From a virus (taxonomy: Duplodnaviria; Caudoviricetes), in the IMG/VR virus record IMGVR_UViG_3300012948_000001, positions 1 to 56,955 of that record: a stretch of DNA of 56,955 nucleotides; one strand, given 5' to 3'. Both the position numbers and the translations under genes were made by a program. A model generated the notes under the pieces. The model was given only the letters and a program-made list of their open reading frames with translations, did no database searches and had not been told where the DNA came from. Within the stretch, counting starts at the first letter, position 1. Each line of letters begins with the position of its first letter. This document shows positions 1,925-56,955 of the stretch, piece after piece.

Positions 1925-2261
1925 AGGGATCAAGTGGTGTAAGACATGCGGAAGCGTTCTTACTCCAGAAACAAATAGCGCTCGATGGGAAATTTATGAG
2001 CGCCTACGGGATGGGAGACAGTCGCTAGAAGGATTGACGTTTACTAGTGATTGGGTGCAGGAAAACGTCTATGACGATGAGTCGCACGAAAACTTTATTG
2101 CGACGATGGAGAGAGATATGTATCGTCGTGGTCTTTGTGTTGATTGTAGTCTACCTGATCTACGAGGCATTACGGATGACGATATAATGTCGGACGAGGA
2201 AGCTCAGGAGATGCACGATCTTTGGGCAATGGAAAGAGCTGAAAGGAACGCGGGTTGCTAA
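1917..2261 (+). CDS. Hypothetical Zn-binding protein
   Basis: CKTC and CVDC pairs; overlaps upstream stop. Confidence 0.7.
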   Translation: MSEGIKWCKTCGSVLTPETNSARWEIYERLRDGRQSLEGLTFTSDWVQENVYDDESHENFIATMERDMYRRGLCVDCSLPDLRGITDDDIMSDEEAQEMHDLWAMERAERNAGC

Positions 2262-2467
2262 GAAGGCTCAAACGTTGGTGGAGAGACTTCTGGTTCGCAA
2301 TCCACTCACATCCATGAAAACATACGAAGAGAAAGTTCAGATGGTTCTGGATGATTACTGGTCTGGAAAGATCAGTCAAATCCGAGCCGATGAGATGTTG
2401 AGAGTTATTCAACAACAGCATAAGATAAGTGGTACACTCGACCTTCGCACATTGGAAAGGAGGGAAA

Positions 2468-2809
2468 ATGAGCGCACCGGAGAGAATTGATAGTCGGGAT
2501 TTGGATTTGGATGATCCCGAGGATAAAGCTCTTTACGATGAACTAGAAGAGAATAGTGAAGAGCATCCCGACGATGGTGTATTTCCGATTCGAGCAGACA
2601 AGTTTGTCGAATATGCTCAGGAATATGCCGATGAGACAGGATCATTCTCATATCGGATAACAAACCCGAGAACGTTTCGTGAGGAGGCAATTGATCTCTC
2701 GCAAGAGTGGCCTTTCAATCACATTGATTGGGAGGCAGCAGCAGAGGACTTGCGCGATGGCTGGTTTGAAGTAGAATACAAAGGTGCAACGTACTACGTC
2801 CGACCTTAG
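2468..2809 (+). CDS. Acidic protein, possibly ArdA-like antirestriction DNA mimic
   Basis: Very acidic; IDWEAAAEDL...VEYKGATYY resembles ArdA C-terminal region (recalled similarity, not searched). Confidence 0.45.
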   Translation: MSAPERIDSRDLDLDDPEDKALYDELEENSEEHPDDGVFPIRADKFVEYAQEYADETGSFSYRITNPRTFREEAIDLSQEWPFNHIDWEAAAEDLRDGWFEVEYKGATYYVRP

Positions 2810-2847
2810 TTTAAAGGAGCAGCCTGCGGGCTGTTCCCTTAAGCTAA
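2806..2847 (+). promoter_or_regulatory. Intergenic RNA hairpin, candidate RNase III-type site
   Basis: ttagtttaaaggagcagcc-tgcg-ggctgttcccttaagctaa directly before AGGAGGTGA. Confidence 0.55.
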
Positions 2848-2858
2848 AGGAGGTGATA

Positions 2859-3137
2859 ATGGAAGCTTGGTTGAAGGAAGCGAAGGATAAGCTCGTCAAG
2901 GATATTGCGGAAGATGGCCCAATCACTAGTTGGGATGAGACGAATTACTGTAGATTTTGCAATATCACATGGGCAGAAGATACGTTTGACGAATATCTCG
3001 AAAACGAGATAAGCCTTGCAGTTGATCCTGGTGCAAGAACTCGGACTGGTAGTCGTATCGCATGGGAACATCACGAAAAGGACTGTGTTTGGGTACGTGC
3101 CAATACGATCCTAAAGGGAGAACATGCGAAAGCCTAG
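2859..3137 (+). CDS. Hypothetical protein (CxxC ... HxxxC)
   Basis: Strong SD then ATG. Confidence 0.7.
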   Translation: MEAWLKEAKDKLVKDIAEDGPITSWDETNYCRFCNITWAEDTFDEYLENEISLAVDPGARTRTGSRIAWEHHEKDCVWVRANTILKGEHAKA

Positions 3138-3315
3138 AGAAGCCGTAGAATTGATGGACGATAGGAACTTTATCTTTCGATTCGGCCAATTGGTTGGAGC
3201 AGTTGAAATGGCTTCTCACCAATTGCAGCAATCGAAGGATGAAGAGGCACAAAAGGTCGGACAAAGATTGTCTGTTGTATCAAGTTGGTTCTTCGAAGAG
3301 AAAGGAGGTGAATAG
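3124..3315 (+). CDS. Hypothetical protein
   Basis: GGGAG SD; operon packing. Confidence 0.65.
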   Translation: MRKPREAVELMDDRNFIFRFGQLVGAVEMASHQLQQSKDEEAQKVGQRLSVVSSWFFEEKGGE

Positions 3316-8859: not shown

Positions 8860-9110
8860 TTGCATCCCGTAGATGCGCTCGCGGAATCAGGGGAGATAGC
8901 ACGGGAATGTGCGCCTATGCTATCTCCCCCCGCTTATTCAGATACAAAAAATCCGACGGACGGAGTATTCTGAATGAGAGATAGTGTAATCGGTCGGTGT
9001 GTCCTCCTTACCGATGACCCTGTACTATCTCTCATGGAGGATAGTCCGTCTATCTTCCATAACAGAGGGAGGTGGTTAGTTACGCGCAAAGGCTAGCTAC
9101 CTCCCTCTTA
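8860..9110 (+). ncRNA. Structured leader or sRNA with three long hairpins
   Basis: Stems 8890-8929, 8959-9050 and 9064-9108; no credible ORF. Confidence 0.55.
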
Positions 9111-51868: not shown

Positions 51869-52179
51869 TTTTTCAAACTGTTGAACAGAGCAGTTACCAT
51901 ATCCTGATCTTCCTTATCGGACAAGCTTTGTGCAAGATTGATAATCACTTTAGCCGCGGCGAGTTCTGTAGTTTCTTTTTCTGCTCCTGTCGCCAGTTGC
52001 ACGACTTTTCCTAGTGCAGTATCCAAGTGTGCAACAGCGAATTCTCTGATGGCCCTTTTGATCTCTTCTACTGAGGCATCAGGTGAAGGCAGTTTATTTA
52101 GAAGCTCTAGGAGCTGATCTTGTTTGTTAACTAGATCACTTAGAGTTAGATCATCTACATCTTTGAAACTTTCTGACAT
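51865..52179 (-). CDS. Putative terminase small subunit
   Basis: First late gene; helical ALGKVVQLA....E...LAAAK.I pattern. Confidence 0.45.
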   Translation of the reverse strand: MSESFKDVDDLTLSDLVNKQDQLLELLNKLPSPDASVEEIKRAIREFAVAHLDTALGKVVQLATGAEKETTELAAAKVIINLAQSLSDKEDQDMVTALFNSLKK

Positions 52180-52205
52180 GGGCTGTTCCCCTTTCGGTTG
52201 AGGGT

Positions 52206-52262
52206 ATGATACACATAGCCCAGATTGCTTACTAGAGAGGAAAAGTGGTATAGACCACTTTT
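52206..52262 (-). promoter_or_regulatory. Candidate late promoter with upstream palindromic operator
   Basis: TATCAT -10 at 52206-52211, weak -35; AAAAGTGGT-n4-ACCACTTTT at 52241-52262. Confidence 0.5.
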
Positions 52263-52418
52263 ATTCGGAATGCTCCAGCTACATTAACCAACAGTCGAAT
52301 CTTGGGGGTTGAATTACGCATAGAATGCTTTAGAGTACGAGTTAGGTCAGTTAGGTCGGCTGGGCGTCCGGTAGGAGTCGGCGCAGCTAGGAGCCACTGA
52401 CAAAGCTAGACACAACCT

Positions 52419-52901
52419 AATTTGGGCTAGTTGAACGAGCGTGTGCGCCCATGCATGACACCGAAAGGACTGTTATGCCTGAAAACACACAGTCGTTTGA
52501 AGACGTGCTCGTCTCACTCGGCATGTCGTCCAAGGAATCCGACCCGCGCATGAAAGACCTGGGTAAGCGCATCATGACCCAGCTTCGCGGAGAGGTGGAT
52601 CGCGTAGTGGTTGCTTGCTACGCGGCGGATCGACTCGACGAGAACATGACTGCACTCGCCCTCGCTGGTGATACCGATGGTACGCTAGTGTTCGCCGACG
52701 TCATCGACGTGCCCGACGCTACCATCAGTCGCATCAGGAGCGCCTGCTACAGCAACGCTGTGCAGAACAAGCGAATCAAGAACGTCTCGTTCATCCGCGT
52801 CAACGACCACAATGGCAATGCGTTCGCCCTCGTGGTCAAGAGGCTCAACACCAGCAACTAACCTCGCATCGGCGCATACGTTCGTTCAACTAGCTCAGAT
52901 T
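52419..52901 (+). repeat. 31-bp inverted repeat flanking a whole ORF
   Basis: 52419-52449 vs 52871-52901; all four deviations are G-U pairs on the + strand. Confidence 0.85.
52475..52861 (+). CDS. First early gene, hypothetical
   Basis: AAAGGA SD; strongly C/G-ending codons. Confidence 0.75.
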   Translation: MPENTQSFEDVLVSLGMSSKESDPRMKDLGKRIMTQLRGEVDRVVVACYAADRLDENMTALALAGDTDGTLVFADVIDVPDATISRIRSACYSNAVQNKRIKNVSFIRVNDHNGNAFALVVKRLNTSN

Positions 52902-52921
52902 GCTAACCGAAAGGATTGGCT

Positions 52922-53185
52922 ATGTCCAAATCCGAAGCGGCTAGATTGGTCGATGCCTATCTGGCTGAACAGGAGAACGACGAGCTAACCGAACGGGAGC
53001 GATTGCGTCAGTGTGGTGTAGTTGACGTATCGCATCGTACCGGCAAGCGTCGTCGTGGCAATAGCGTCCTGAAGCGTCAGCCTAAGACGTATTCAGCGGC
53101 CAGCACATACATCATCCGTTGTCCGAAGACGGGTGAACAGATCGCAACAACCAAGGTGCTCATCAAAAAGAGAATCCCTGTATAG
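52922..53185 (+). CDS. Hypothetical basic protein
   Basis: AAAGGA SD; followed by terminator. Confidence 0.65.
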   Translation: MSKSEAARLVDAYLAEQENDELTERERLRQCGVVDVSHRTGKRRRGNSVLKRQPKTYSAASTYIIRCPKTGEQIATTKVLIKKRIPV

Positions 53186-53198
53186 GGATTCTCTTTTT
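53165..53198 (+). terminator. Rho-independent terminator (possibly bidirectional)
   Basis: aaaaagagaatccct-gtat-agggattctcttttt. Confidence 0.75.
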
Positions 53199-53259
53199 GT
53201 GCAGCATAAGGGAACAATTCGCGCTTCGCGATTTTCCTTCCGAAAGGAGGTGAAAACCC

Positions 53260-53403
53260 ATGAAATTCATCGTCGAGATGTTTACTTCCAAGCGTGTTTG
53301 GGAAATGGTCGGCAGTAACATGACGATCGAGGAAGTGATCCAACACTTCGGAAACATGCAATACGCGCCATTTCGTCTGTACGTTATGGCGGAAAAAAGC
53401 TAA
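53260..53403 (+). CDS. Small hypothetical protein, 47 aa (not in ORF track)
   Basis: AAAGGAGGTGA SD then ATG. Confidence 0.65.
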   Translation: MKFIVEMFTSKRVWEMVGSNMTIEEVIQHFGNMQYAPFRLYVMAEKS

Positions 53404-53426
53404 TCGCGTTAACGCGGTTAGTTCCG

Positions 53427-53611
53427 AGGTAATAAATCTAATTAATTACCTGGGAACTAATCGTGCAACGTCGTGTCAACAGGGTATATGGATCGCTTAT
53501 ACGAGGTATAAGCGTTTCATTTCACCAATTTCACCTATTACACACCGTCAGAAAGTTACAGTTATCCCTCGAAACAAATAAACCAGGTACTAAATCTAAT
53601 CATTTACCTGG
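53427..53611. repeat. Two 27-bp palindromic direct repeats in an AT-rich noncoding region
   Basis: aggtaataaatctaattaattacctgg (53427) and aggtactaaatctaatcatttacctgg (53585). Confidence 0.7.
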
Positions 53612-53767
53612 TAATTAATGTACGTAGTAGTGTAGTATGGTGAATTTGACAATCCGGGGAAGTGATAAACATAATTAAACACTGGCCGTGTCTCAACGAG
53701 GGATTTGCGCTACTTGTCCCTCAGACTTTTGACAGATCGAGGCTTTTTACGCGGAGCTGTCAAACCC

Positions 53768-53795
53768 TTGACAGTTGCGCGCAACATGCTACGAT
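53768..53795 (+). promoter_or_regulatory. Early promoter overlapped by inverted repeats
   Basis: TTGACA-16-TACGAT; CTGTCAA-n4-TTGACAG. Confidence 0.6.
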
Positions 53796-53820
53796 CCTAC
53801 ACATAACGAAAGGAGGAACA

Positions 53821-53925
53821 ATGACGCTTAAGGAAGCACTTTTGATTCAGCGTGAAAAGGCATCTCTTCGCGGCGATGTTGTTCTCGTTATGCGGATCAA
53901 CAAGCTGCTTGCGAAGTTTTGCTGA
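53821..53925 (+). CDS. Small peptide, 34 aa
   Basis: AAGGAGG SD then ATG. Confidence 0.6.
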   Translation: MTLKEALLIQREKASLRGDVVLVMRINKLLAKFC

Positions 53926-54003
53926 TAGAGGGAATGGAGAATCCGGAGGAATAAGCCAGTAAGTATGGTAGGGGCTACTGGCAAACGATAGGAGGTGATA
54001 CAG

Positions 54004-54192
54004 ATGGATGCAGCAACCATTACCTCGCTAGTCATCGTGATCGGATCTATTGTGATCGGTTTTGCACAATGGATCGCTGCGGTTTACGTTGCAGCAGAGA
54101 TCGGATACTCGAAAGGTCGTAGTGGACTCTTTTGGGGTCTGATCTTCGGATGGCTCGGCGTGTTGGCAGTATACGTGCTGCCTGAAAAGTAA
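54004..54192 (+). CDS. Small membrane protein
   Basis: GGAGGTGA SD; KGRSG..WG..FG.LG motif. Confidence 0.7.
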   Translation: MDAATITSLVIVIGSIVIGFAQWIAAVYVAAEIGYSKGRSGLFWGLIFGWLGVLAVYVLPEK

Positions 54193-54369
54193 TACTAACC
54201 CGAAAGGGTTAGTAAACCGGAAGTCAGTAAAAAGCAGCGTAGAGATAACATCGTGAGAAAAACTGTGTCGCGTTATGGCTAACCGCGAGATGGTAGAGGA
54301 CATAAAAGCCATCGTCCGGAACTGCGATGCTCTGACGGCTATAAGACGCTCCGGTTTATTAACCCTTTT
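54193..54369 (+). ncRNA. Candidate structured RNA A
   Basis: 19-bp closing stem 54203-54221/54350-54368 around a multibranch core. Confidence 0.6.
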
Positions 54370-54387
54370 AGGTCATTTAATTCGGCC

Positions 54388-54416
54388 TTGCAATCAGGGA
54401 CGGTTTGGTGTATAAT
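54388..54416 (+). promoter_or_regulatory. Strong early promoter
   Basis: TTGCAA-17-TATAAT. Confidence 0.7.
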
Positions 54417-54453
54417 CCGTTCCGCGGATCTACGGAAAGGGGATATCGCACTT

Positions 54454-54579
54454 ATGGCACCTATTGGTGATCCTGAGAAGGTTTGGGAATTGCCTGCACC
54501 GTTGGATGTACCTAGTCCAGACGACGTGCCGGTTGAATTGCCCATTCCTGTTGAAACTCCAGAAAAGGTGGAGGTTTAG
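54454..54579 (+). CDS. Pro/Glu-rich peptide, 41 aa
   Basis: AAAGGGGA SD; MAPIGDPEKVWELPAP... Confidence 0.65.
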   Translation: MAPIGDPEKVWELPAPLDVPSPDDVPVELPIPVETPEKVEV

Positions 54580-54762
54580 TAAGGCGCACTCAGGAAGATA
54601 TTTATTATGGAAACCCCTTATTCCTGAGGGCTTTGTCCAGGCTCTCGAATAGGAATAAGAGAGGGTTAGAGTTAGGACAACTCTAACGAACCATAAATGT
54701 CTTGATATCCTGTCCAGTAGTGGTAGCTGCTGAGATAAGGGAGTGCGTCTTACTAAATCTCT
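54570..54762 (+). ncRNA. Candidate structured RNA B
   Basis: 22-bp closing stem 54570-54591/54741-54762; nested hairpins with complementary loops. Confidence 0.65.
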
Positions 54763-54781
54763 ACCCGGAAAGGAGGTGATT

Positions 54782-55198
54782 ATGCTTCCAGAGTATGTTG
54801 GTAGCCAGCATGTTCGAGCGATCCGAATTTTTGGGGTCAATCGAAAGACACTTATGCTTGAATCTCTGAATGGTGAAGTTTGGGTGCCAGGTGAGATCAA
54901 GCAAAGTGTTTGTGGACATGCAAAGCACCATGGCTTTACGAAGCCAGAAGTAAAGTGCTCCTGTGGGATTTGGAGTTGCAAGTCCCGCAAGGCATTGAAG
55001 CGAACTTTTCCTCATTTGTATTACGGGGAAAGGATCGTGAGCGCACAAGTGGAGCAATGGGGTAGGGTAATCGAGCACAGAGACGGTTATCGTAGCGAGT
55101 ATGCCAGAATAGTGCCAGGCACTATCCAGTTCTGGCCTCGACCCCACAAACCGAGTAACAAAAAGCTCATCAACTTTCTACGCGCAAAGTATTCTTAG
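54782..55198 (+). CDS. CxCG-motif protein of unknown function
   Basis: AGGAGGTGA SD; CSCGIWS...WGRVIEH..GYRS. Confidence 0.75.
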   Translation: MLPEYVGSQHVRAIRIFGVNRKTLMLESLNGEVWVPGEIKQSVCGHAKHHGFTKPEVKCSCGIWSCKSRKALKRTFPHLYYGERIVSAQVEQWGRVIEHRDGYRSEYARIVPGTIQFWPRPHKPSNKKLINFLRAKYS

Positions 55199-55212
55199 AA
55201 AGGAGGTGAAAC

Positions 55213-55380
55213 ATGATCTTTGACAGCAAAGATCGTGAGGATATGAAAGTTGCGGTTTGGGCTATCGGAATCGCGGCCGATCATATCAAGTGCAGCATTT
55301 GCGGTCGTTATTGGGATACAATTGATCCCTGCTGTCTCTGCAACGTAACGTTGTGGGTTACGGGCAGAAAGAATAGCTAA
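55213..55380 (+). CDS. Small Zn-ribbon protein, 55 aa (not in ORF track)
   Basis: AGGAGGTGA SD; CSIC...CCLC. Confidence 0.65.
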   Translation: MIFDSKDREDMKVAVWAIGIAADHIKCSICGRYWDTIDPCCLCNVTLWVTGRKNS

Positions 55381-55386
55381 CCCGAT

Positions 55387-55457
55387 AAGGGTTAGTAAGC
55401 TAGTGAGAGGAACCAGGCGATTATTGCGAGCCAACTTTCACTAGCTCACTAACTCTT
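55387..55457 (+). promoter_or_regulatory. Intergenic long RNA stem, candidate RNase III-type site
   Basis: 23-bp stem with two G-U pairs and one mismatch. Confidence 0.6.
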
Positions 55458-55480
55458 AAGGAAAGGAGGTGAAAGACCTA

Positions 55481-55846
55481 ATGAAGAAAGAAGAGGCAAT
55501 TGTAGCGTTGCGTGAACTTGCAGACAAGCTTGAGAGTCTGGAGTTTACGGAGGACAGTGAAGCATGGTTTACGAATCCGTCGATTTATATCTATGGCGGA
55601 ACGAAAACCGAACTTCGCATGTTTGCACGCACAATGCGAAGTGTGAAGAAGTCTGCGAGTGATTCGAGCTTTTCACTCTATACGCCTTGGCAGAATAATT
55701 GGCGCATTGAGATGTATGCTCAGAATCGTGAGCAGGTCTGCAAGAAGAAGGTCGTCGGAACTGAGGAAGTTCCGGAGCGAACTACTCCTGCATATACCAA
55801 GGAGATCGTGGAATGGGAATGCGATCCCATCCTTGGTGTAGACTGA
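55481..55846 (+). CDS. Hypothetical protein
   Basis: REQVCKKKVVGTEEV...VEWEC.PIL; strong SD. Confidence 0.75.
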   Translation: MKKEEAIVALRELADKLESLEFTEDSEAWFTNPSIYIYGGTKTELRMFARTMRSVKKSASDSSFSLYTPWQNNWRIEMYAQNREQVCKKKVVGTEEVPERTTPAYTKEIVEWECDPILGVD

Positions 55847-55859
55847 AGGGAAAACGCAC

Positions 55860-55994
55860 ATGACAGATCAAGAGATCAAAGAGCAGATCGCTCTTTATCT
55901 TGAGCGCAAGAATCAAGTAGCGCAGAAAAACGGGAAAGAGACTCACGCACAAAGTCCAATGGAAGCAGCATTGGCAAAAGCTATCGCCAGATAG
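55860..55994 (+). CDS. Small hypothetical protein, 44 aa (not in ORF track)
   Basis: AAGGGA SD then ATG. Confidence 0.5.
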   Translation: MTDQEIKEQIALYLERKNQVAQKNGKETHAQSPMEAALAKAIAR

Positions 55995-56044
55995 CTAGTT
56001 CATCCGGAGCATTCTTTCGGGAATGCTCCCATGAGCTAGTTATC
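55990..56044 (+). promoter_or_regulatory. Intergenic hairpin with UUCG loop, candidate RNase III-type site
   Basis: gatagctagttcat..ggagcattct-ttcg-ggaatgctcc..atgagctagttatc. Confidence 0.6.
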
Positions 56045-56057
56045 GAAAGGAGGTGAA

Positions 56058-56294
56058 ATGACACATAAGCTGAAGTTCAAGCAAGAGGTATCTGTACATC
56101 ATCTCAAGAAGAATGATGAGTATGTGATGCATGGGTTTTACCTCGACGAAGATGAGGAGTATATCTGGATCGAAGGTACTGTCGGAGACAAGATTGGTCG
56201 CGTCATGCAGTTTCCGAAAGCTCAAGTGTTGTTTCTTGAGTACGAAGAGCGCAACAAACTACGGGATTCATACGACGAACATTGGGAAAAGTAA
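56058..56294 (+). CDS. Hypothetical protein
   Basis: AGGAGGTGA SD then ATG. Confidence 0.7.
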   Translation: MTHKLKFKQEVSVHHLKKNDEYVMHGFYLDEDEEYIWIEGTVGDKIGRVMQFPKAQVLFLEYEERNKLRDSYDEHWEK

Positions 56295-56337
56295 GTCTGA
56301 TGCAGCAATCTTTCGGGATTGCTGCACTGGATTTATT
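56290..56337 (+). promoter_or_regulatory. Intergenic hairpin with UUCG loop
   Basis: agtaagtctgatgcagcaatct-ttcg-ggattgctgcactggatttatt. Confidence 0.55.
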
Positions 56338-56354
56338 GATAGAAAGGAGGTGAC

Positions 56355-56510
56355 ATGGAACCTCGTGAGTTGCATATGCTTTTGAAGAGCGTTGTGCAAC
56401 CGGACGTAATGGTCGCATACGATGAATCGGAGGATGATTATATTCTCACGTTTCAGGAAGATGCAAACACCATTCGTGCAATGAGAATCGAGGTCAAGGA
56501 GGTGAAGTGA
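56355..56510 (+). CDS. Small hypothetical protein, 51 aa (not in ORF track)
   Basis: AGGAGGTGA SD; GTGA overlap with next gene. Confidence 0.65.
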   Translation: MEPRELHMLLKSVVQPDVMVAYDESEDDYILTFQEDANTIRAMRIEVKEVK

Positions 56511-56755
56511 ACGAAAAGCTCAAGCGGATCAATTGCGAGGTTGTTACAAACCTCGAAGTGATCTATCAGATGACTCCCGAACAGAGTTACGCGATAGAAC
56601 ATATCGCGATGAACTTCAAAGCAAGTAAAGTCCGCCTGTGGGGCCGGTTTTATCCGGATCAACCGGAAGATTACATTACAGGCGCATTGTTCGACCATAA
56701 GGATATGTTGATCTACGAATTTGGCGTAGATTCAACAGGACGGATATCTAGTTAG
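56507..56755 (+). CDS. Hypothetical protein
   Basis: AAGGAGGTGA SD with GTG. Confidence 0.7.
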   Translation: MNEKLKRINCEVVTNLEVIYQMTPEQSYAIEHIAMNFKASKVRLWGRFYPDQPEDYITGALFDHKDMLIYEFGVDSTGRISS

Positions 56756-56781
56756 AACGGAAAGAAATTTTCCGGCACCCC

Positions 56782-56810
56782 TTGACTTTGGAAAGGAGGT
56801 GTGGTAAGCT
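56782..56810 (+). promoter_or_regulatory. Housekeeping-sigma promoter
   Basis: TTGACT-17-TAAGCT with TG extension. Confidence 0.55.
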
Positions 56811-56955
56811 TGGAAGCGCCTACGGGAGAACTGCTTTTGAAACGCACAACTCAGCACGGAGATAAAACGGAAATTCGGTTTATCCCAGGAACACCAGAAG
56901 GATCGTTTACATTTGTAATCGGTCTGTCGCAGTTTCCGTGTATCTCATGGAGTGA
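56810..56955 (+). CDS. Junction-spanning hypothetical protein, continuing to stop at 164-166
   Basis: AAAGGAGGTG SD with TTG; MEAPTGELLLKR...FDAEKT*. Confidence 0.6.
   Translation, partial: MEAPTGELLLKRTTQHGDKTEIRFIPGTPEGSFTFVIGLSQFPCISWS
56833..56955. repeat. Terminal direct repeat, copy 2
   Basis: Identical to 1-123. Confidence 0.95.

Follow-up and report, generated by a model that had tools for sequence, protein, structure and literature searches.

The stretch analyzed here, called the window throughout, is the 56,955-bp IMG/VR virus record IMGVR_UViG_3300012948_000001 (positions 1 to 56,955). Its subject is a cassette on the + strand at 54388-55198, in which a sigma-70-like promoter, a proline-rich open reading frame (ORF), a folded RNA and the gene for a 138-amino-acid (aa) protein stand in that order. 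The data strongly support the peptide and the protein as a conserved pair. With about even confidence, the cassette was read as part of an early operon of a tailed soil phage, in which a widespread two-gene module, with a protein resembling ADP-ribosyltransferases (ARTs), is combined with a phage-specific RNA element of the RNase III type. An initial annotation of the window had proposed here a candidate system of promoter, Pro-rich peptide, kissing-loop RNA and CxCG protein; its observation was confirmed and its interpretation was partly supported.

The peptide gene (MAPIGDPEKVWELPAPLDVP...; 54454..54579, +) runs from an ATG at 54454 to a TAG at 54577-54579 and encodes 41 residues with an isoelectric point (pI) of 4.05 and 24% Pro. 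The protein gene (54782..55198, +) encodes a basic protein (pI 10.0) that has a cluster of Cys and His and whose predicted fold is ART-like; the CxCG protein was found as the initial annotation had described it. Relatives of the protein were sought in genome contigs. A first scan with an alignment of the close family returned none, and a second with a 12-member protein alignment returned 90, from which 80 loci were kept. These belonged mostly to Actinomycetota and Acidobacteriota, with single records from Bacillota, Parcubacteria, Nitrospirae and others. A hidden Markov model (HMM) built from 11 peptides was searched against the six-frame translations of 92 loci, a set that excludes the window copy (L001) and five loci that were near-duplicates of L012 or truncated (L013-L017). 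At first pass the peptide was matched at 37 of the 80 genome loci (E <= 0.01), and after two iterations at 59 of these and at 68 of the 92 loci in all. All 79 matched peptide domains lay on the strand of the homolog and none on the opposite strand. Most peptides ended 0-70 nt upstream of the family match and some of the genes overlapped. Similar small ORFs adjoin the homolog in the viral loci L002, where the peptide stop overlaps its ATG, and L003, and the same pattern was present in 13 metagenome loci. The initial annotation's suggestion that similar peptides adjoin this family was borne out.

Two adjacent co-directional genes, usually with the small one first and tightly spaced, are the arrangement of type II toxin-antitoxin (TA) systems, and this arrangement was found at 68 of the 92 loci. 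The neighbours of 16 genome loci were mutually unrelated and included two resolvases, an IS110 transposase, HigB and a MazE-PIN pair. Variable neighbours together with mobile elements are the pattern expected of a self-contained mobile or selfish cassette. At L009 the pair is duplicated in tandem as a unit (889-1829 and 2250-3184), the second peptide apparently starting at CTG. A description of the pair was not found among the papers listed by keyword searches on ARTs, phages and TA systems, in which the peptide motif itself was not searched; as far as the family and literature searches go, the gene pair is undescribed.

The protein belongs to a large family. A word-indexed search returned 15 proteins including the window's own, at 39-54% identity and with a Pfam domain in none; invariant in their alignment were, among others, C44, C59, C61, C66, W93, G94, H99, G102, R104 and E106. 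A profile search of 1.84 billion cluster representatives gave 2,188 matches at E <= 0.001 (representatives at 50% identity), 63 at 1e-10 and 25 at 1e-30, and the family extends over Actinomycetota, Acidobacteriota, other phyla and phages. Conserved family-wide were R15, W34, C44, P55, C59, C61, G62, W/Y64, W93, G94, G102, R104 and E/Q106. From 74 members the signature PxxGxRxW ... W.PG ... C(x8)HxxPxxxCxCG[IFL][WY][AS]xK ... VxGxVxLWGxVIEHxxGYR[AS][EQ][YF]A was obtained. Arg is present at position 15 in 70 of the 74, position 64 is aromatic or His in all 74, and position 106 is E or Q in 71. The three Cys residues are kept in 72-74 of the 74 members with a His nearby, which suggests that the Cys3/His cluster is a zinc site. 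PHROGs, PADLOC and NCBIfam held no model for the protein family. In the ESM Atlas the protein fell in unnamed clusters, mostly of Actinomycetota and phages; a lead to T4 Y00F from the same source (0.92) was not confirmed by Pfam.

Some members have unusual settings. One (L029, 3007-5199) carries a C-terminal fusion to a DNA polymerase A-like domain (Pfam E 1e-17), with the peptide gene still upstream, and another (P0083) is fused to a sigma-70 region 4 helix-turn-helix (E 9e-4). The Actinomycetospora genome that holds L064 (G001) has four family matches (L099-L102; E 1e-26 to 2e-4), two of them adjacent on one contig.

The fold of the protein was predicted using AlphaFold2 from alignments of 15 and of 74 sequences, with predicted local distance difference test (pLDDT) values of 86.3 and 90.9, respectively. 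The two models were compared with 48,161 chains using VIA-align, and the best 50 matches were listed for each. The first model reached Z >= 2 with 79 chains and the second with 75; the best 50 of the 79 were almost all from the ART superfamily, and the best 50 of the 75 all were. The top match was BC2332 (PDB 2aua), with Z 5.8 and a root-mean-square deviation (rmsd) of 5.1 A over 92 aligned residues for the first model, and Z 5.7 and 4.5 A over 98 for the second. It was followed by TreX (Z 4.7, 3.9 A, 102 aligned), DarT (Z 4.5, 5.1 A, 115 aligned, and Z 4.2), pertussis toxin S1 (Z 4.3, 4.2 A, 108 aligned), PltA (Z 4.3), CC0527 (Z 4.2, 3.9 A, 89 aligned), PARP13 (Z 4.1) and Tpt1 (Z 4.0). Further ART-fold matches listed were MbcT, ParT, Tne2, Arr, scabin, pierisin and diphtheria toxin. 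In ARTs the triad that binds nicotinamide adenine dinucleotide (NAD; H-Y-E or R-S-E type) is carried on strands 1, 2 and 5, and PARPs have G-I-Y-F-A and E-Y motifs. In the models strand 1 carries R15, the strand that precedes helix 69-75 carries G62-x-W/Y64, and E106-Y107 is part of the last hairpin; R15, W64 and E106 form a candidate triad by their order and by the secondary-structure elements in which they stand, both of which fit the ART motifs. The protein is thus moderately supported as ART-like at the level of fold only. Membership of the superfamily is not claimed: all Z values are low, and VIA-align cautions that Z under 8 may mean only a common arrangement.

BC2332 (SCOP d.166.1.6) was the best structural match of both models. 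BC2332-like and CC0527-like proteins are SCOP families of the ADP-ribosylation superfamily (PMC3000352, excerpt), of which 2aua is described as an uncharacterised member (PMC3000352 and PMC3024214, excerpts); it has been predicted to be toxin-like from local templates (PMC3024214, excerpt). It differs from the protein of the window in its identity of only 11-12%, the low Z and its length (210 residues vs 138). We know of no peptide partner of BC2332. Among the predicted structures of BFVD, the best Foldseek matches were uncharacterised phage proteins, at E 1e-7 (a Caudovirales protein) and 1e-3. Viral proteins annotated as DUF7666 were matched there at E 2e-3 to 2e-2, with template modelling (TM) scores of 0.46-0.52. 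However, Pfam, the DUF7666 model included, matched none of the 74 family members over their common part; no mention of DUF7666 was found in the literature searched.

The first alignment of the peptides (n=11) had the consensus MxxIGxPxRxxxxxPxxxP, and that of 68 sequences M-D/Q-I-G-E/K-P-x-R-x-I-x-V-E-P-L-E-x-P-V-P followed by a variable tail rich in Pro and Glu. G5, P15 and P19 are present in 97-100% of the 68; the N-terminal 20 residues are conserved and the tail is hypervariable. No family was found for the window peptide in Pfam, PHROGs or PADLOC, for the peptides of three relatives in NCBIfam, or above 0.75 in the ESM Atlas.

A complex of the window peptide with the protein was predicted with a score of 0.72 (0.72, 0.74 and 0.72 in three runs), the best of 3 controls reaching 0.00. 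Of 157 solved complexes 116 attained this mark, as did 2 of 215 mismatched pairs, rates that hold only roughly here because our own alignments were used. The runs shared at least 93% of contacts, with a partner pLDDT of at least 58. In the predicted complex, peptide residues 3-16 contact protein residues 2-11, 64, 66-67, 91-103, 107 and 109. The peptide would be laid as an added beta-strand against residues 91-103, the most conserved strand (WGxVIEH), touching W64, Y107 and R109 near W64 and E106 of the putative NAD pocket; its tail was not placed. The complex prediction passed, which supports the link between peptide and protein raised initially and, in silico, a putative direct binding.

The conserved N-terminal 16 residues of the peptide may therefore add a strand to WGxVIEH beside the putative NAD pocket. 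Because of this predicted strand addition and these contacts, the peptide was read as a bound neutraliser or regulator of the protein, the pair being antitoxin-like and toxin-like in the manner of ART-fold toxin-antitoxin and immunity pairs. Such pairs (DarT-DarG, ParT-ParS, MbcT-MbcA, TreX-TriX and Tne2-Tni2) likewise place a small ART-like protein beside a partner on the same strand and form cassettes scattered among mobile elements and phages, and toxins of such pairs are among the structural matches. They differ in showing no sequence or profile similarity to the present pair, in which toxicity and NAD use are putative, the partner is only a 35-50-aa proline-rich peptide whose fold is not known, and a Cys3/His cluster is present in the protein.

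Between the peptide stop and the Shine-Dalgarno (SD) sequence of the protein gene lies a structured RNA domain of 199 nt (54567..54765, +), which by itself has a minimum free energy of -97.5 kcal/mol. For the region 54560-54790 the energy is -105.8 kcal/mol vs -61.0 +/- 4.4 for 200 shuffles (z -10.3). The domain is closed by a helix whose 5' arm (54567..54591, +) pairs with a 3' arm (54741..54765, +); the latter stops 1 nt short of the SD and 16 nt short of the ATG at 54782. The initial annotation had given this stem 22 bp; it is present, and its length is 25 bp, made of 22 Watson-Crick and 3 G.U pairs with no mismatch and no A.C. As had been noted, the stem closes just before the SD (GGAAAGGAGGTGA; 54767..54779, +), an extended motif that also serves other early genes, and the peptide stop lies inside the 5' arm, which covers the last 3 codons and the stop. 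Inside were found, as annotated, the inner helices aagatatt/aatgtctt (54595-54602 / 54696-54703, +) and cttattcct/aggaataag (54617-54625 / 54651-54659, +), the hairpin gagggctt-UGUCC-aggctctc (54626..54646, +) nested in the latter, and the hairpin gttagagtt-AGGAC-aactctaac (54665..54687, +). A further hairpin (54709..54740, +) has the apex GU-GGUA-GC (GGUA at 54722-54725) on a CC...AGG base and is the only motif in common with relatives.

The proposed kissing of the two loops fared less well. GUCC and GGAC are complementary over 4 nt, which is found in about 3% of random loops of these sizes, and the pairing is not conserved: L006 has no loop pair of at least 3 nt, L007 only 3-nt matches made of A/U, and L008 a different 4-nt pair. 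Rfam returned nothing at the gathering score for the whole window, and for 54300-54900 only two chance-level matches (E 0.62 and 8.5). ARAGORN found no tRNA, Tandem Repeats Finder found nothing in 54100-55300, and the RNA contains no family of direct repeats.

An analogous structured domain, lying between the upstream stop codon and the protein SD, was found in all four close relatives, the window included. The others were L006 (303-521, z -6.6), L007 (2273-2454, z -8.5) and L008 (582-835, z -4.0), in which the gap between peptide and protein is 274, 257 and 491 nt, respectively. The closing helices of the window, L006, L007 and L008 have 25, 25, 25 and 22 bp and are unrelated in sequence, with complementarity in the three relatives of 96, 100 and 95%; they end 13-18 nt before the start codon, abutting the SD. 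At all other family loci there is no room for such an RNA, and peptide and protein abut. Since the RNA is present only in four close phage relatives, it is not a general partner of the family; it resembles other long-helix intergenic elements of the same phages. The neighbourhood survey of homologs thus upheld the peptide (68 of 92 loci) and confined the RNA to these four. In L008 the peptide and the RNA are separated by an extra ORF, which associates the RNA with the protein gene and not with the peptide. MAFFT with RNAalifold gave no consensus structure: the four RNAs are analogous in architecture and not alignable. Coupling through unwinding of the 5' arm by the ribosome was rejected as a general rule, because the arm starts -10, 0, +20 and +1 nt from the upstream stop in the four loci.

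The closing helix belongs to a series of long helices in the window. At the start of the + strand block, a 36-nt inverted repeat (31 Watson-Crick, 4 G.U and 1 mismatch; 52419-52454 / 52866-52901) encloses a 136-aa ORF (52451-52861), so that a long-range RNA helix would surround a whole gene. A 24-bp helix with a 128-nt interior (54198-54373, z -5.1) immediately precedes the promoter at 54388, and hairpins of 23-27 bp lie at 53157-53206, 53415-53463, 55386-55458, 8959-9050 and 3168. A small hairpin, TAACCCGAAAGGGTTA, stands in the 5' arm of the 54198-54373 element and recurs at 55377-55395. L007 has a further three long helices (23-26 bp); the interior of one is a branched domain of 105 nt. Two consecutive 23-bp elements of L007 (1483-1570 and 1602-1752) fill a single intergenic gap (z -10.9 for the pair), the second enclosing a four-hairpin domain. 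The arms of different elements are unrelated in sequence. Over 15 long helices the positions other than Watson-Crick were G.U in 18 cases and A.C in 6, and we conclude that the helices were therefore selected in sense-strand RNA; the single helix in the - strand gene block has the opposite mismatch type.

The minimum target of RNase III is 22 nt, and RNase III sites and processing are established for T7, T3 and lambda transcripts and for rRNA precursors (PMC5371410, excerpt). The four closing helices (25, 25, 25 and 22 bp) have at least the length of about 22 bp required by RNase III, and that of the window is intercistronic, between a stop codon and an SD in a putative polycistronic early transcript. 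Because the length matches that minimum and such processing is established in those systems, we infer that the long helices are sites of RNase III-type processing and of transcript stability. The sites of T7, T3 and lambda early mRNAs likewise have helices of at least 22 bp between the cistrons of an early polycistronic transcript, and in the helices flanking 16S and 23S rRNA distant arms form a long helix around a folded RNA (PMC5371410, excerpt). Unlike the phage sites, the present duplexes are near-perfect over 22-36 bp, several enclose domains of 105-210 nt or a whole ORF, and their cleavage is putative.

Taken together with the pair, this would give the following scheme. In bacteria the two genes, 0-70 nt apart or overlapping, are translationally coupled. 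In the phage lineage a multi-hairpin RNA of 180-250 nt stands between the upstream stop and the SD and would replace this coupling. A cut by RNase III would separate the two cistrons, release the domain and give the enzyme mRNA a short leader. What the analysis shows is the anatomy of the sequence, its conservation, the co-occurrence of peptide and protein, and a fold and a complex as predictions; that zinc is bound, NAD used, the protein toxic and neutralised, and the RNA cut by RNase III is what we infer within this scheme.

Several results weigh against this reading. At 24 of the 92 loci, some of them cut by contig ends, no peptide was detectable, and in L003, L054 and L061 it lies downstream of the homolog. 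The pI of the peptide spans 4.0 to 9.9 across the family, and this lack of a conserved charge contradicts a simple acidic-mimic model. With Z at most 5.8, the fold match is weak. Foldseek returned nothing from the PDB at E <= 0.001 for the two models (best E 0.12 and 0.67). When the family profile was compared by hhalign with 9 DarT sequences, the only proteins compared profile to profile, the probability was 0.06%, and a profile search of PDB sequences gave nothing relevant. The ADP-ribosyltransferase-like fold of the initial annotation accordingly stands at the level of the VIA-align matches and is silent in Foldseek and in the DarT comparison. E98 (56 of 74) and E106 (52 E and 19 Q of 74) are not invariant, and among 42 further phage ORFs there was no macrodomain, no other gene handling ADP-ribose and no RNase III gene. 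The internal 150-210 nt of the RNA are not needed for a plain RNase III site and are not explained by one, and the GUGGUAGC hairpin common to the relatives hints at a specific function.

A less likely reading, though one with some standing of its own, takes the protein for something other than an ADP-ribosyltransferase: a zinc-binding factor for nucleic acid or protein, whose sheet would be merely ART-like and whose partner would be the peptide. The low Z and the silent Foldseek, sequence and profile searches point this way. So does the conservation, the best conserved residues being three Cys, several Gly, Pro and Trp and two Arg and not a Glu, as do the occasional fusions to sigma-70 region 4 and to a DNA polymerase A domain. 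However, the listed chains at Z >= 2 are nearly all of the ART fold for two independent models, and R15, G-x-[WY]64 with its helix and E106-[YF]107 follow in the order of the ART motifs.

It is somewhat unlikely that the pair is not toxin-antitoxin-like, with the peptide an obligate small subunit or a substrate akin to the precursor of a ribosomally synthesized and post-translationally modified peptide (RiPP), its N-terminus acting as leader and its tail being modified. RiPP leaders bind recognition domains by beta-strand addition. The conserved N-terminal 20 residues, the hypervariable tail left unplaced in the model, the predicted strand addition and the contacts beside the putative pocket are in keeping with this, but the tails are not rich in Cys, Ser or Thr as RiPP cores typically are, and genes for transport, proteolysis or tailoring are not conserved nearby. 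The scattering beside mobile elements and TA genes better fits conflict cassettes.

A three-part system, in which the RNA is a dedicated partner of the ART-like protein (operator, RNA antitoxin or decoy, or substrate) and the GU-GGUA-GC hairpin is the recognition site, was judged unlikely. In its favour, the structured domain lies directly 5' of the homolog SD in all four close relatives, even in L008, and GUGGUAGC is a hairpin apex in three of them (the window, L006 and L007), on different stems; any 8-mer common to at least 3 of the 4 interiors was obtained in only 78 of 20,000 shuffles. The protein is basic, and the matches include ART folds that act on nucleic acids (DarT, Tpt1 and pierisin); one described ART toxin modifies the GGU anticodon loop of tRNA-Thr (PMC13617354, excerpt). 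Against these, no other family locus has the RNA, the four RNAs resist alignment and have no RNAalifold consensus, L008 lacks the hairpin motif, and similar helix-closed domains adjoin unrelated genes in the window and in L007. Nor does the RNA have the tandem repeats typical of type III TA systems or a match in Rfam. As in those systems (ToxIN-like), a structured RNA stands directly upstream of a putative toxin gene; they differ from the cassette, which has no such repeats and no terminator separating RNA and gene, a fold that is not endoribonuclease-like, and a peptide partner.

A more specific form, that the excised RNA is a functional partner of the ART-like enzyme, cut at the 25-bp helix and displaying a U-GGU-A hairpin, was considered a little less likely still. 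Such an RNA could be a decoy or mimic, an RNA antitoxin beside the peptide, a substrate that is ADP-ribosylated, or a carrier of the enzyme to its target; if true, this would make a peptide-RNA-enzyme module with no described equivalent.

That the inverted repeat is a feature of DNA (a miniature transposon or recombination site) or of chance with no role in RNA is scarcely credible: 25-nt terminal inverted repeats do enclose about 150 nt and several such repeats occur in the early region, but the unrelated arms of different elements mean that there is no repeat family, the mismatches are G.U rather than A.C (18 to 6), the position is exact relative to stop codon and SD in four divergent phages, and the interiors fold far better than shuffles (z -4 to -10.3).

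The favoured reading, of a two-gene ART-like module with an RNase III-type RNA element, leaves the promoter outside the conserved unit, since in relatives the peptide gene abuts the preceding ORF and the promoter is not kept. The TTGCAA(54388)-17 nt-TATAAT(54416) site noted initially (54388..54416, +) is present, with 10 of 12 matches; as a conserved part of the system it did not survive this comparison. It is one of three + strand sites scoring at least 10/12 within 52000-56955, and the promoter scan gave 9 promoter-like sites vs 5.7 +/- 2.6 in shuffles; the site is plausible and statistically not compelling. From the promoter to the protein gene, the + strand has no terminator-like site. An SD-like sequence, GGAAAGGGGA, was read 10 nt before the peptide ATG (54434..54443, +). 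An NAD-capped transcript was considered; the lack of an A around the expected start, 6-8 nt after the -10 hexamer, makes it improbable.

The phage record is a complete genome of 56,955 bp with 46.9% G+C and an exact 123-bp terminal direct repeat. Names assigned by PHROGs on the + strand include helicase, exonuclease, Sak4-like protein, primase, family A DNA polymerase and endolysin, and on the - strand tape measure, tail, major head, protease, portal and large terminase. The cassette sits within a block of small + strand genes (about 52.4-56.9 kb and 1-9 kb), for none of which a Pfam family was found; we take this block to be the early region. Searches of the region and the protein against 50,697 phage records (blastn and tblastn) gave no matches, and those of a high-GC relative of the family matched two Streptomyces phage hypothetical proteins only. 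The phage DNA was present in only one sequencing run, of soil-metagenome DNA, a possible source, and no RNA run is listed with it.

The extended SD AAAGGAGGTGA occurs 8 times on the + strand of the whole genome and is absent from the - strand, where the structural genes lie; ribosome-binding strength seems to differ between early and late genes. Directly 3' of the ART-like gene is a 55-aa Cys-rich ORF (CxxC ... CCxC; 55213-55380) with a perfect SD, which is not kept after the homologs in L006-L008. Two 35-nt direct repeats (53427-53461 and 53585-53619) are 86% identical and 158 nt apart; they also join in inverted repeats, and no ORF accounts for them.

If the favoured reading is true, the very large unnamed family, with its 2,188 representatives, would be a new ART-like conflict module, and its peptide of about 40 residues, easily missed by gene callers, would be the smallest partner yet. 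The phage would furnish a second, unstudied early transcript punctuated by helices of RNase III length. Some of these helices enclose folded RNA domains, which may be released as small RNAs.

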